A stretch of DNA of 64,000 nt from Nitrospirota bacterium (GTDB taxonomy: Bacteria > Nitrospirota > UBA9217), in assembly GCA_963840455.1 (NCBI GenBank), contig CAWIYV010000010.1, positions 32,001-96,000 of the forward strand, written 5' to 3'. The position numbers and the translations under genes are program-made. Of this stretch, positions 39,431 to 44,188 are shown piece after piece. A model generated the notes under the pieces. It was not told where the DNA came from. It saw nothing but the letters and a program-made list of their open reading frames with translations, and did no database searches. Numbering within the stretch: position 1 is the first letter of the stretch; the number at the start of each line of letters is the position of its first letter.

Positions 39431-42106
39431 CTATGCGCCGTGGCACTTCTTATATTTCTTGCCGCTCCCGCAGGGGCAGGGGTCGTTCCTTCCCACCTTC
39501 TTGTCCGTGTGCACCGGCTGGGGCGCCGCCATCGCGTCGCCCGCGCCCACGAAGCTGAGCTGGGCCATCTGCCGCTTCTGCCGCCGTTCGATCTCCCGGT
39601 CGTCCTCCTTCGCCTGCTTGACCCGGAAGATGCTCTCCACCGTGGTCTCGACGATGCGGCCCTTCATCTCCTCGAACATGTCGAACCCCTCTTTCTTGTA
39701 TTCGATGAGGGGGTCCTTTTGACCATAGCCCCGGAGGCCCACGCCTTCCTTGAGATGGTCCATGGCGAGGAGGTGGTCCTTCCACTGGTGGTCCACTGCC
39801 TGGAGCATGAAGAGCTTCTCGAGCCGCCGCATCAGATCGGGGCCGATCTCGGACTCCTTGTCATTGTAGCTCTTCTCGAGCGCCTGCCAGATGACGTCGC
39901 GGAACTCATCGCGCGATTTGTCGCCCTGCTCCAGGTCCCCGAGGCGGAAGGAGAACTTCGCAACCAGCGTCTCCTTGAGGCCGACGAGGTCCCAGGTCTC
40001 GGGGTAGGCGTCCTCAGGGCAGTAGAAGCCGAAGAGGCCGTCGAACAGCTCCTCGGCCAGGCCGAGCACGTCCTCTTTGAGGTTCTCGCCCGCCAGGATC
40101 TGGCGGCGCTGCTCGTAGATGACCTTGCGCTGCTGGTTCATCACATCGTCGTATTCGAGGACGTGCTTCCGCATCTCAAAGTTATGGTCCTCAACGCGCT
40201 TCTGGGCGCTCTCGATGGAGCGGGAAACCATGCGGTGCTCGATGGGGACGTCCTCCTCCATACCAAGCCGCTCCATGAGCCCGGAGATCCGGTCGGAGCC
40301 GAAGATCCGGAGCAGGTCGTCCTCGAGCGCGAGGTAGAACCGCGACGAACCCGGATCGCCCTGGCGTCCCGACCGTCCGCGCAGCTGGTTGTCGATCCGC
40401 CGCGACTCGTGCCGCTCCGTGCCCAGGATATGCAGCCCGCCGGCTGCGATCACCTTCTCCTTCTCCGCAGCGCATTGCTGCCGGCACTGGATCAGGGTAG
40501 TCTCCCATTCCTCCGGCGTGTGCTCTTTTCCCTTCAGTATCTGGCGCGCCAGGCCCTCGGGATTGCCGCCCAGTACGATGTCCGTACCGCGGCCGGCCAT
40601 GTTCGTGGCGATGGTCACGGCAGCGTGGCGGCCCGCCTGGGCCACGATCTCGGCCTCCATCTCGTGGTACTTGGCGTTCAGCACCGTGTGCCTGATGCCC
40701 TTCTTCTTGAGCAGCGTAGACAGCAGCTCGGACTTGGCGATGGAGATCGTGCCGACGAGCACAGGCTGGCCGATCTTGTTCTTCTCCTCGATCTCGCTGA
40801 TCACAGCGTTGAATTTGCCCTTCTCGTTCTTGTAGATGAAGTCAGCGTTGTCGATCCGTATCATGTCCCGGTGCGTCGGGATCACCACCACATCGAGGTT
40901 GTAGATCTTCGAGAACTCGGCTGCCTCGGTATCGGCTGTGCCGGTCATGCCGGCCAGCTTGTTGTAAAGCCGGAAGTAGTTCTGGAAGGTGATGGAGGCG
41001 AGCGTCTGGTTCTCGTTCTCGATCTTGACGTTCTCCTTGGCCTCGATGGCCTGGTGCAGGCCGTCGCTCCACCGGCGGCCCGGCATGAGCCGGCCGGTGA
41101 ACTCGTCCACGATCATCACCTGGCCGTCCTTCACCACGTAGTCAACGTCGAGCTGGAACAGGGCGTGGGCCTTCAGGGCCTGGTGGACATGGTGCACCAG
41201 GTCCACGTTGGCGGGATCATAAAGGTTCCCGGCATTCAGCAGCTTCTCGACCCGTATATTGCCCTCCTCGGTGAGGGCTACGGTCTTGGTCTTCTCCTCG
41301 ATGGTGTAGTCTGCGTCCTTCTTGAGGCTCGGGATGATGCGGTTGATCTTGTAGTACTTATCGGTCGATTCCTCGGCCGGGCCGGAGATGATGAGCGGCG
41401 TTCGGGCCTCGTCGATCAGGATGGAGTCCACCTCGTCCACGATTGCGTAGTTCTGCTCGCGCTGAACGTAGTCCGCCAGGTCGAACTTCATGTTGTCCCG
41501 CAGGTAGTCGAAGCCGAACTCGTTGTTCGTGCCGTAGGTCACGTCGCTGTTGTACGACGCCTGCCGCTCCTCGTCGTCGAGGCCGTGGACGATGACGCCC
41601 ACGGTGAGGCCCAGGAACTGGTAGATGGGCCCCATCCACTGGGCGTCGCGTCTGGCGAGGTAGTCGTTCACCGTCACCACGTGCACGCCCCTGCCGGTGA
41701 GGCTGTTCAGATAGACTGGGAGCGTGGCGACCAGGGTCTTGCCCTCGCCGGTCCGCATCTCGGCGATCTTTCCCTCGTGCAGCACGATGCCGCCGATGAG
41801 CTGGACGTCGAAATGGCGCATGCCCAGAGTGCGCTTCGACGCCTCCCGAACGACGGCAAAGGCCTCGGGCAGGATCTCTTCGAGGACCGTCTTCTCCGCG
41901 CCGCGCAGCTCCACGGGATCTTCGATGCCTTCCGTGCGCTCCCGGATCAGCTTCTTGAATGCGTCCGTCTTTGCCTTGAGCTCCCCGTCAGTGAGCCGCG
42001 CAATGTCCGCTTCGAGCGCATTGATCGCCTCGACGCGCGACTGGATGCGCTTCAGGTCGCGTTCGTTCTTGGTGCCCAGAATCTTCTTGAGGATCGTTCC
42101 TATCAT
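39431..42106 (-). CDS. secA: Preprotein translocase ATPase SecA
   Basis: [64 protein letters not shown]. Confidence 0.99.
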
Positions 42107-42301
42107 GAGACTCCCATCTCAGCCATTGTGATCTTTCGTGAAGCACCCGTCATGATAATCACTTTCCCTTGTAAATTCAAGGGAAATATGCCTTGACCGC
42201 TTCTGGGGCGGCGCTCATCATCAGCTGAGACCACGCCCTTCCCCGCAGTGGGCATCCTATTTATTTCTTGACAGGGGCCGCGTTTACGTTAAAATGTACG
42301 C

Positions 42302-42634
42302 ATGAAAGCACTCCTGACGGACAAGTCCATTTTCGAGATGCAGGCGGAGATCTGTAAGACCCTCACCAATCCAAAGCGCATCGAGATCCTGAACGCCCTG
42401 AAGACAGACGAAAGGACCGTGACGGACTTGGTGAACATCCTGGGCGCGTCCAAGGCGAACGTCTCGCAGCACCTCGCGGTGATGCGCCACAAGGGTATCC
42501 TGACAACGAGGCGGGAAGGTGTGAATATCTTCTATCGCGTGGCTAATCCCAAGGTCATCGAGGCTTGTGCACTCATGAAGGAAGTGCTGTTCGAGCAGCA
42601 CGCGGCGAGGAAAAAGGCGGTTTCCGGCGCCTGA
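42302..42634 (+). CDS. ArsR/SmtB family transcriptional regulator
   Basis: CKTLTNPKRIEIL, SKANVSQHLAVMR, RREG..IFY; Cys residues near both termini. Confidence 0.93.
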   Translation: MKALLTDKSIFEMQAEICKTLTNPKRIEILNALKTDERTVTDLVNILGASKANVSQHLAVMRHKGILTTRREGVNIFYRVANPKVIEACALMKEVLFEQHAARKKAVSGA

Positions 42635-42734
42635 TTGCCTGCCATTTTTTTTAACCTTATAGTTGCAAATATTCTAAACTTGTATCTTTAGCACCCCGGT
42701 CATTTCTACCGGATTTATCACAGACGAAAGAAGG

Positions 42735-43283
42735 ATGGTTATGAAGACAGGCAGTGTTCAGGACGCAGACACACGGCCCGCGCAGTACATGAACCCTTAT
42801 GTTGCCGGGGTCGGGCTCGGGCTGGTGCTGCTAGCGGCATTCGTTATCGCAGGACGGGGTCTGGGGGCCTCAGGCGCTTTTGCCTCGGTGGTGAGCTACG
42901 TGGTCAGCTTGGTAGCGCCGGCCCATGCAGGGAACAACCCCTTCTACCAGAAATACCTGTCCCGGGCGTCCAATCCTTTCAAGGACTGGCTTTTCATTGA
43001 AGTGCTCGGTGTGATGATAGGCGGGTTTCTGTCCGGATACTTCACACGGCGGGTGGCCAAAACAATCGAGCGGGGCCCGAACATCTCCGACAAGGGCCGG
43101 CTCGCCCTGGCCTTCGGCGGCGGCATGCTCGTATCCTTCGGCGCACAGTTCGCCCGGGGCTGCACCAGCGGGCAGTCCATCACGGGAGGGGCGCTCCTGA
43201 ACCTGGGTAGCTGGGCGTTCACCATGTCGGTGTTCGCCGGGGCCTACGGCGCTGCGTACTTTCTGAGGAGGGAATGGAAATGA
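42735..43283 (+). CDS. YeeE/YedE sulfur-compound transporter subunit 1
   Basis: NPYVAGVGLG, GRGLGASG, FGAQFARGCTSGQ motif; multiple TM helices. Confidence 0.92.
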   Translation: MVMKTGSVQDADTRPAQYMNPYVAGVGLGLVLLAAFVIAGRGLGASGAFASVVSYVVSLVAPAHAGNNPFYQKYLSRASNPFKDWLFIEVLGVMIGGFLSGYFTRRVAKTIERGPNISDKGRLALAFGGGMLVSFGAQFARGCTSGQSITGGALLNLGSWAFTMSVFAGAYGAAYFLRREWK

Positions 43284-43867
43284 CGGCACCGCTCATCACA
43301 TCCGGGGCCCTGAGCCCCTCGTACGATCTGTTCTTCGCGCTGCTGATCGGCATCGCCTTCGGGTTCTTCCTGGAGCGCGCAGGATTCGGCAGTGCGCGTA
43401 AGCTCGTTGCCCAGTTCTACCTCACCGACCTCTCGGTCTTCAAGGTCATGTTCACCGCGCTCGTGACCGCTATGGTGGGGGCCATCATTCTGAACCGCGT
43501 GGGGTTCCTCGATATCGGTGAGCTCCCCCTTATCGGGACGTACATCGTCCCTATGATGGTCGGCGGCCTGATCCTCGGCGTCGGTTTCGTCATCGGAGGA
43601 TATTGACCCGGCACCTCTGCCGTGGCGGTCGCCACGGGCAAGGTCGACGGCATGGTCTATGTGGGAGGCCTCCTGGCAGGCATGTTCGTCTATGCTGAGC
43701 TCTCGCCAGTCCTTATGCCGTTCGTGAACAGCACCAGCATGGGACAGATAACCATCCCGCAGTATTTCAACCTCCCGGTCTTCGGGGTGGTTGCCGCGGT
43801 CATCGTGATGGCCCTCGCCGGCTTTTACGGCGCGACCATCGTGGAGAAGAAGTTCGGAAGCCGCTGA
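43280..43867 (+). CDS. YeeE/YedE sulfur-compound transporter subunit 2, probable selenoprotein (UGA at 43604-43606)
   Basis: ORF-track pieces 43274-43606 and 43622-43867 are in one frame: ...GFVIGGY-TGA-PGTSAVAVATGK... The TGA occupies the Cys of the GxCPGT motif. Read-through gives 195 aa. Confidence 0.88.
43619..43639 (+). promoter_or_regulatory. Bacterial SECIS-like hairpin
   Basis: CCGTGGC-GGTC-GCCACGG perfect 7-bp stem with a G-led loop, separated from the UGA by 13 nt. Confidence 0.75.
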
Positions 43868-43890
43868 GCAGCACATTGCATCGGAGCGAC

Positions 43891-43932
43891 AACGGCCGCC
43901 GAGGGAGACCCTTCGGCGGCCGTTCTTTTTTT
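43891..43932 (+). terminator. Terminator of the arsR-yeeE-yeeE operon
   Basis: AACGGCCGCCGAGGG...CCCTTCGGCGGCCGTT followed by CTTTTTTT; it lies after the read-through stop (43867), not after the UGA. Confidence 0.9.
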
Positions 43933-43966
43933 CGAAGATCTTGTCGCTGCACCATGGTGCTCACGC

Positions 43967-44188
43967 TTCTCTCCCACCCCGGGCGGCTAGGCTGCGACGA
44001 CTGTGAGTATGCATGCCAATGCCCTACCCCTAACAAGAGCTGTCAAAAAAGCAACGCGGCAGAAGGGAACAAACTATTGAGCATGAACGAATATTATGGC
44101 ATGCCAACGCGGCTGAGCGATAAGCCGCCCAAAAGAGCGATTTTTTTCTACGGCCCGCCCCGCGCTGTTGCGCAGGCATGCCTTAGAG
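43967..44188. repeat. Diverged ~230-bp repeat, copy B
   Basis: Collinear similarity to 31698-31942, same orientation. Confidence 0.75.

Follow-up and report, generated by a model that had tools for sequence, protein, structure and literature searches.

In the structure of the thiosulfate transporter YeeE, a member of the YeeE/YedE family (PF04143), three cysteines stand in line at intervals of ~7 Å in the thinnest part of an hourglass-shaped protein, with C293 adjoining the periplasmic site for thiosulfate and C22 towards the cytoplasm (PMC7449682). C91A and C293A mutants fail to complement, serine cannot replace the three cysteines in Escherichia coli YeeE, and it was proposed from the crystal structure that the pore cysteines guide thiosulfate via S-H-S hydrogen bonds (PMC7449682). 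The short proteins PmpB and PmpA match the long YeeE in its N- and C-terminal half, respectively, and keep C91 and C293; a PmpA-PmpB heterodimer has been proposed in print as probable, and PmpAB-like proteins import zero-valent sulfur according to work cited in the same paper (PMC11582611, 2024). Here, we describe a three-gene operon from a bacterium of the Nitrospirota (GenBank assembly GCA_963840455.1, contig CAWIYV010000010.1, positions 32,001 to 96,000; this stretch of 64,000 nucleotides is the window, within which positions are counted below). The operon consists of an arsR gene and the genes for the two halves of a YeeE/YedE-type transporter, a PmpA-like subunit 1 and a PmpB-like subunit 2. 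We predict that subunit 2 is a selenoprotein, with selenocysteine (Sec, U) at the position of C91.

Selenoproteins have been predicted in this family before. YeeE/YedE is listed as a predicted prokaryotic selenoprotein family with the motif GUxSG in a 2026 catalogue that also names several other transporter selenoproteins (PMC13188914), and the same entry stands without a motif in a 2022 table (PMC9312934). The novelty implied by the original prediction, which was made from the DNA sequence of the window and called Sec in an integral membrane transporter unusual, is therefore not supported. The catalogue divides other families into "form 1" and "form 2" by the position of Sec (PMC13188914), and the tables examined from the two sources contain a single YeeE/YedE entry and no UPGT-type motif for the family (PMC13188914, PMC9312934). 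YeeE/YedE is absent from the main texts of the two primary papers that the catalogue cites for this entry (PMC2398784, Zhang and Gladyshev 2008; PMC5029168, Peng 2016), whose supplements could show a form with Sec at the PmpB site. The term "DUF6691", a domain matched by subunit 2, was not found in the literature searched, and the main text of the deep-Sep paper mentions no transporter. The window departs from GUxSG: the G-C-T-S-G of subunit 1 holds Cys, and the putative Sec is found in the G-Y-U-P-G-T of subunit 2. Because the family is catalogued with GUxSG only and the window has the reciprocal, uncatalogued layout, the window gene is a new form of a known selenoprotein family and not a new class.

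The best explanation for subunit 2, to which we assign a probability of about 85%, is that it is encoded by one intact gene in which an internal UGA is read as Sec. For the decoding event taken by itself, comparison of sequences makes Sec very probable. The frame reads GGA GGA TAT TGA CCC GGC ACC at 43595-43615, remains open for 86 codons past this TGA (43604-43606) and ends at a TGA stop at 43865-43867, and the operon terminator (43891-43924) follows only the later stop, all in agreement with the original prediction. All 120 full-length homologues examined (56-82% identity) have Cys at residue 109, which in the window is specified by the internal TGA, and this Cys lies in the invariant context GGYCPGTS. 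When subunit 2 is aligned to the YeeE of Spirochaeta thermophila (6leo; expectation value, E, 8e-5), residue 109 falls on C91 and C22 falls in a gap. The homologue alignment thus supports the proposed arrangement of Sec at the conserved pore Cys of the second YeeE/YedE half and Cys in the first, in which the motif ARGCTSG was found as described. The codon at position 109 is TGC in 61, TGT in 44 and TGA in 5 of 110 genome loci, the five being the window, one same-genus contig counted twice and two distant fused genes; the corresponding numbers for 80 metagenome loci are 45, 28 and 7. No other codon occurs at this position across the 190 loci, and it is never TAA or TAG, so that the predicted alternation of TGA with TGC or TGT among homologues is seen in genomes and metagenomes alike.

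The region 3' of the UGA contains a candidate bacterial Sec insertion sequence (bSECIS). According to published rules, a bSECIS has a loop of 3-9 nt with a G among its first two nucleotides, a stem of 4-16 bp, a distance of 16-37 nt from the UGA and a folding energy of -7.5 kcal/mol or better (PMC13188914, section 5). The perfect 7-bp hairpin of the original prediction, CCGTGGC-GGTC-GCCACGG, is present 13 nt 3' of the TGA and lies within all of these rules, with a GGUC loop, 20 nt from UGA to loop and -12.6 kcal/mol. The hairpin signal is one of synonymous-site conservation and not of energy, and this conservation is the decisive point. At each of codons 114-119, which encode A V A V A T and are all four-fold degenerate, one and the same codon is used in nine of nine TGA copies of the gene; in these copies, third positions vary at every one of codons 97-108 and 110-113. 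The stem is broken in the sole close Cys-form contig whose DNA was examined (L138, 74% identity). Distant fused forms with a putative Sec have a different strong hairpin at the same distance, CGUGGCCC-GGU-GGGCCGCG (19 nt, -14.2 kcal/mol), and selD of the same genome has the hairpin GGUCC-GGCG-GGACC, with a GG tetraloop, 17 nt 3' of its own UGA. Folding energy as evidence for a SECIS was dropped: the region is rich in GC and gains no stability over shuffled sequences, and the window ranks 39th among 110 loci by whole-segment minimum free energy. Since energy is uninformative here, rule-based hairpins and synonymous-site conservation were used instead.

The host genome (G000; 4.03 Mb, 14 contigs, completeness 100) encodes the Sec machinery that the original prediction called for, with matches to selA, selB, selC and selD all above curated cut-offs and with selB and selA adjacent. 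Two tRNA-Sec genes, both with the anticodon TCA, were detected by ARAGORN and score 66.5 and 52.9 bits against RF01852. The selD gene is itself a selenoprotein gene with an in-frame TGA (TCG-TGA-AAKIGP; L018, G000:C14:252661-253584). Among the alternatives to Sec, read-through of the UGA without selenium, by near-cognate insertion of Cys or Trp or by local recoding, survives best, and we regard it as very unlikely. Low-level read-through of UGA is known in bacteria, but it leaves aside the full set of Sec genes, the in-frame UGA of selD and a conserved hairpin whose spacing suits a SECIS and whose loop has GG as in selD. The genetic code is not reassigned in this organism, because all three operon genes end in TGA as their ordinary stop.

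A second alternative is that the TGA is a true stop and that the gene yields fragments of 108 and 81 aa, the latter by restart at GTG 43622, with three pieces assembling into the transporter. An 81-aa open reading frame does begin at this GTG, but no Shine-Dalgarno-like sequence was seen 5' of it, the essential pore Cys that is invariant elsewhere would be lost, the frozen hairpin spans the proposed start and the codon is exclusively TGA. Relatives in which an N-terminal and a C-terminal half are fused are informative in this respect. They occur in other families of the phylum (L050, L051, L221 and L222, in genomes G058, G041, G037 and G050) as one frame of ~370 aa, with TGA at the C91-equivalent (AGF/AGL-TGA-PGTC), Cys in GGGCTSG or GGGCTTG, and hairpins 18-19 nt 3' of the TGA. 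The same TGA within a single long frame argues against fragments, and we consider a true stop highly improbable.

Comparison with close relatives suggests that the frame past the UGA is translated. In the same-genus genome G003, the entire operon is present at ~89% DNA identity and 90% amino-acid identity and the TGA is kept, while codons on both sides of it have changed synonymously (GGA to GGG, TAT to TAC, ACC to ACG, TCT to TCG). Seven of 80 metagenome contigs also have the TGA, with protein identity of 79-90% and no additional stops; the nine TGA copies as a set are without extra stops or frameshifts. The ratio of nonsynonymous to synonymous substitution rates (dN/dS) between subunit 2 and its G003 orthologue amounts to 0.136 before the UGA (codons 1-108) and 0.147 after it (codons 110-195), compared to 0.182 for subunit 1. 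The similarity of the downstream to the upstream value indicates that the segment after the UGA is translated, and the expectation of a conserved downstream frame under purifying selection was thus confirmed over 86 codons. These data bear on the possibility that a nonsense mutation has turned subunit 2 into a recent pseudogene with a decaying downstream frame. Gene callers do stop at the TGA, and an all-Cys paralogous pair in the genome, described below, could cover the function; however, the TGA is kept in at least nine sequences down to 79% identity, the downstream segment is as constrained as the upstream one, the codon is always TGA rather than TAA or TAG, and divergence of 10-20% argues against a single clonal population of related contigs. 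We therefore judge a pseudogene to be extremely improbable. The chance of a sequencing or assembly error at 43604-43606 is negligible, given the same codon in the independent G003 assembly, in seven metagenome contigs and in a contig of run X1, which may be the source sample, that spans the codon with a single difference sited elsewhere.

Several observations weigh against this account. The evidence for Sec decoding is at the level of sequence. The read check is weak, as it consists of Logan contigs, with fewer than half of the sampled words present in any run. The contigs of X3 and of the RNA library X14 are diverged, and 25 differences were not listed individually, so that we claim for these runs neither codon identity nor transcription nor a habitat. 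Shuffled sequences fold as well as the 76-nt region (z -0.36), and a rule-compliant hairpin is present in 27 of 105 Cys-form loci, in eight of them at -12 kcal/mol or lower. An Rfam scan of 42100-44100 (E up to 1) gave no match to the hairpin, with the proviso that Rfam may hold no general bacterial SECIS model, and returned only two sub-threshold chance matches, on the terminator. As for the transporter, the alignment of subunit 1 to 6leo and 6lep, which places its Cys on C293, is weak (E 0.025-0.031); no substrate-specific NCBIfam model comes near its cut-off, and no TusA/YeeD-like gene is found near the operon (C10:74-76 kb). As for the regulator, the arsR query used here gave no match upstream of the transporter genes in 111 more distant loci with enough sequence.

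The predicted products of the two genes are best assigned to the family of split PmpAB-type YeeE transporters. Subunit 1 matches PF04143 with 68.1 bits over profile positions 175-309 of 310 only, the C-terminal half, and subunit 2 matches it with 42.8 bits over positions 2-149, the N-terminal half, in addition to PF20398 (DUF6691) with 30.9 bits. The two Pfam halves are complementary and each is above the gathering score. Among 160 related loci, 154 have subunit 1 directly upstream of subunit 2, and upstream sequence was too short in the remaining six. The fused relatives provide Rosetta-stone evidence that the halves work together, and on these grounds subunits 1 and 2 probably form a heterodimer; the heteromeric transporter of the original prediction is not supported as written, since we infer the pairing from the complementary halves, gene order, gene overlap and fusion. 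Any particular substrate can be named only tentatively. A TsuA/YeeE-type thiosulfate importer was rejected (NF041049 and NF052577, 22.7-29.1 bits compared to cut-offs of 400 and 645), as was a YedE/FdhT-type selenium transporter (TIGR04112 and NF033796, 23.3-30.5 bits compared to cut-offs of 200-350). The genome has seven TusA-like matches, the nearest of them on the same contig as the operon at a distance of ~140 kb.

Two further sets of YeeE-type genes were observed in the host genome. One is a full-length YeeE-like gene (G000:C11:92704-93117, in a 372-aa frame without a stop) located ~7-21 kb from two TusA-family genes (C11:86019 and C11:71451), a neighbourhood that is more conventional for YeeE and TusA than that of the window operon. 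The other is a second pair of PmpA-like and PmpB-like genes, all-Cys, at G000:C13:35917-37184 (L220 3417-4684, minus strand). The PmpB-like protein of this pair is 42% identical to subunit 2 and may be a selenium-independent backup; the neighbours of the pair, a PanE-like gene and a gene for an ABC ATPase, are uninformative.

A putative Sec at the other half of the transporter was found outside the Nitrospirota. A search with PF04143 of 121 Geobacterales genomes led to eight TGA-flagged loci that were fetched, including both genes of one pair. In five of these eight, the PmpA-like subunit carries the TGA, within ...ADG-U-PSGHG, a sequence consistent with GUxSG, and Cys is found in the PmpB-like subunit, in LGYCPGTS. 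The remaining flags were rejected: those on the N-half matches L215 and L217 reflect a stop just 5' of the start of the gene, where it borders on the preceding one, and the alignment of L216 contains no stop. All three have Cys in both subunits.

In a set of 19 TGA-bearing genes or pairs, made up of nine of the window type, five Geobacterales pairs, four fused forms and the gene L223, no member has the putative Sec at C91 and C293 together. We regard this as an observation rather than a rule, because the sample is small and the sequences are related. L223 (G048:C1:1759300-1761500, minus strand) is a full-length YeeE-family gene of the window's phylum with TGA at the C22-equivalent (QRGRY-TGA-MNS) and at the C293-equivalent (AVAGG-TGA-TVGHS, with a GGUA-loop hairpin of -9.9 kcal/mol) and with Cys at C91. 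Two other full-length genes of the phylum, L224 (G035:C1:1737000-1739300) and L225 (G028:C9:69200-71500), have QRGRF-TGA-MLS at the C22-equivalent, with weak hairpins (-5.1 kcal/mol).

By alignment, Sec109 would replace the central, essential pore residue C91, and the partner Cys of subunit 1 would take the place of the periplasm-facing C293. We propose that a reduced sulfur species, which could be thiosulfate, sulfane sulfur, zero-valent sulfur or a selenium analogue, would pass from the outer Cys to the inner Sec and would then be released to the cytoplasm, and that the selenolate may speed the relay step or make it more selective. A selenol is largely deprotonated at neutral pH. Because it is mostly ionised, the repeated substitution of Sec fits poorly with a purely hydrogen-bond-donor role, and suggests that the pore residues may act in a nucleophilic or redox relay. 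A more far-reaching interpretation is that these residues are chemical relay sites and not hydrogen-bond guides, that a selenolate occupies either the outer (PmpA, C293-equivalent) or the central (PmpB, C91-equivalent) site, that sulfane sulfur or selenium is handed over covalently across the membrane via Cys-S-S(e)-Sec, as the lack of genes with Sec at both sites would fit, and that the ArsR-linked form is a dedicated importer; taken as a whole, this interpretation is speculative and rather unlikely. If it were true, the ArsR-linked Nitrospirota form would import a reactive chalcogen species with high affinity and would offer a natural means of probing how transport works.

The operon comprises three co-directional genes and one terminator (42302-43932), all on the plus strand (Table 1). 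The start codon of subunit 2 overlaps the stop of subunit 1 as ATGA and is preceded by GGAGG 8 nt upstream, and the stem-loop with its T run is the sole terminator-like site on the plus strand 3' of the genes. The operon is flanked upstream by secA on the opposite strand and downstream by a cold-shock gene, an M23 peptidase gene and an HhH-GPD gene.

Table 1. Features of the operon (window positions) and tRNA-Sec genes of the host genome
Feature	Position	Strand	Remarks
Promoter-like TTGACA-16-TAAAAT	42268..42295	+	11/12 consensus matches; directly 5' of arsR ATG
arsR, ArsR/SmtB winged-helix regulator, 110 aa	42302..42634	+	PF01022, NF033788
Promoter-like TTGCCT-17-TATAGT and overlapping imperfect AT-rich palindrome	42635-42663 (promoter-like); 42659-42680 (palindrome)	+	Candidate operator, putative function
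Subunit 1, PmpA-like C-terminal-half YeeE/YedE, 180 aa	42741..43283 (alternative start 42735)	+	PF04143, ARGCTSGQ
Subunit 2, PmpB-like N-terminal-half YeeE/YedE (DUF6691), 195 codons	43280..43867 (alternative start 43274)	+	PF04143, PF20398
Predicted Sec codon UGA, residue 109, GGY-U-PGTS	43604..43606	+	Aligned with Cys of homologues
Candidate bacterial SECIS core	43620..43637	+	7-bp stem CCGUGGC/GCCACGG, tetraloop GGUC
Intrinsic terminator of operon	43891..43932 (stem-loop 43891-43924 and T run)	+	15-bp stem, 11 G-C pairs, 4-nt loop
tRNA-Sec genes L001, L002	G000:C1:311722-311816 and G000:C9:389439-389529		Neither adjoins selB/selA (contig 7)

The regulator encoded by the first gene matches PF01022 with 51.4 bits (cut-off 22) and NF033788 with 81.4 bits (cut-off 55), and it reaches no effector-specific NCBIfam cut-off (BigR, 51.8 compared to 155; TsoR, 45.4 compared to 115). 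Its closest solved relatives are Rv0081, PagR and NolR, with BigR and SqrR ranking lower. Persulfide sensing of the BigR/SqrR type is unsupported, given the BigR score below cut-off and this ranking. Judged by match ranges rather than by residue-by-residue alignment, its two cysteines, C18 and C89, are off the sensing positions of SqrR, which we take to be C41 and C107. Both are kept in three of three full orthologues, which says little because these orthologues are 83-94% identical. Four promoter-like sites were found in the region, compared to 0.8 expected from shuffled sequences. The -10 hexamer of the site at 42268-42295 ends 6 nt 5' of the arsR ATG, and this position suggests that arsR may be translated from a leaderless or near-leaderless mRNA. 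The stretch at 42635-42680, which contains the weaker promoter and the palindrome 3' of the arsR stop, is nearly unchanged in G003. The arsR gene lies upstream, in the same orientation, in close TGA-bearing relatives (six complete and three cut by contig ends). The original prediction described the transporter as ArsR-controlled, a wording that is not supported as it stands: linkage to arsR is confined to close Nitrospirota relatives, and no effector-specific cut-off is reached. It is nevertheless reasonable to infer, from the gene arrangement, that ArsR may control the transporter genes, with the repressor probably acting from the AT-rich palindrome between arsR and subunit 1.

Genes of this form are commonly truncated in sequence databases. 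When the 108-residue N-terminal fragment was used as a query, 119 further short proteins were listed; 47 of them have 111 aa or less, and 44 of these 47 stop exactly at ...GGY, with identity of 52-95%. We take these 44 short calls to be cut at the same TGA codon, as judged from sequence and from DNA examined for seven contigs. The mishandling by gene callers that the original prediction anticipated therefore occurs, in the form of truncation. In GenBank-derived data, the named short records are "hypothetical protein" or "Rhodanese domain protein". When 301 genomes of the phylum were sampled, a TGA-bearing match was found in eight. Two of these matches are split genes from the genus of the window, and the other six are long frames of ~370-410 aa. 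Four of these six were inspected, and all are fused with TGA at this site; G183 and G355 were not inspected. In a FastTree phylogeny of 164 rows (119 Cys and 45 putative Sec forms), at least seven changes of the Sec/Cys label are required, and well-supported branches force at least two; the tree is weakly resolved because only the N-terminal 108 columns were used.

A family model that includes the Sec site would repair many Nitrospirota and metagenome records that are now cut at the UGA. Replacement of Cys by Sec at the pore sites also supplies ready-made variants (U, C and S) for tests of nucleophilic or redox chemistry in transport. In evolutionary terms, the fact that Geobacterales pairs and the window operon hold the putative Sec in different subunits, together with frequent switching, offers a compact case of Sec/Cys exchange at paired active-site residues.

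The closest known systems differ from the window operon to varying degrees. The YedE/FdhT putative selenium transporters are distant superfamily members that are linked to selenium metabolism (PMC5322559, PMC9312934), whereas the window operon has no adjoining selenium-metabolism gene. TsuA/YeeE (Spirochaeta thermophila 6LEO; E. coli YeeE) belongs to the same fold family, and Sec109 falls on its essential C91, but it is a single chain of nine helices with a third cysteine, C22, and an obligatory partner, TsuB/YeeD; the window has neither an equivalent of C22 nor a nearby YeeD/TusA gene. PmpA and PmpB of Serratia sp. ATCC 39006 and relatives share with the window the two halves, the order of C-half before N-half and the Cys positions. 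The window differs from them in having the predicted Sec at the PmpB-position Cys, in its longer proteins (180 and 195 aa compared to ~130 aa), in an extra hydrophobic C-terminal segment of subunit 2 and in lacking a TusA/SirA-like third gene. The Serratia pmp genes are presumably under the ArsR-type regulator PigS. The catalogued GUxSG selenoprotein (example WP_012471001.1) shares the Pfam family and the two-gene layout with the window, a comparison drawn from the Geobacterales loci and not from WP_012471001.1 itself. In the Geobacterales pairs the putative Sec is in the PmpA-like subunit, at the outer, C293-equivalent position, whereas in the window it is in the PmpB-like subunit, at the central, C91-equivalent position.

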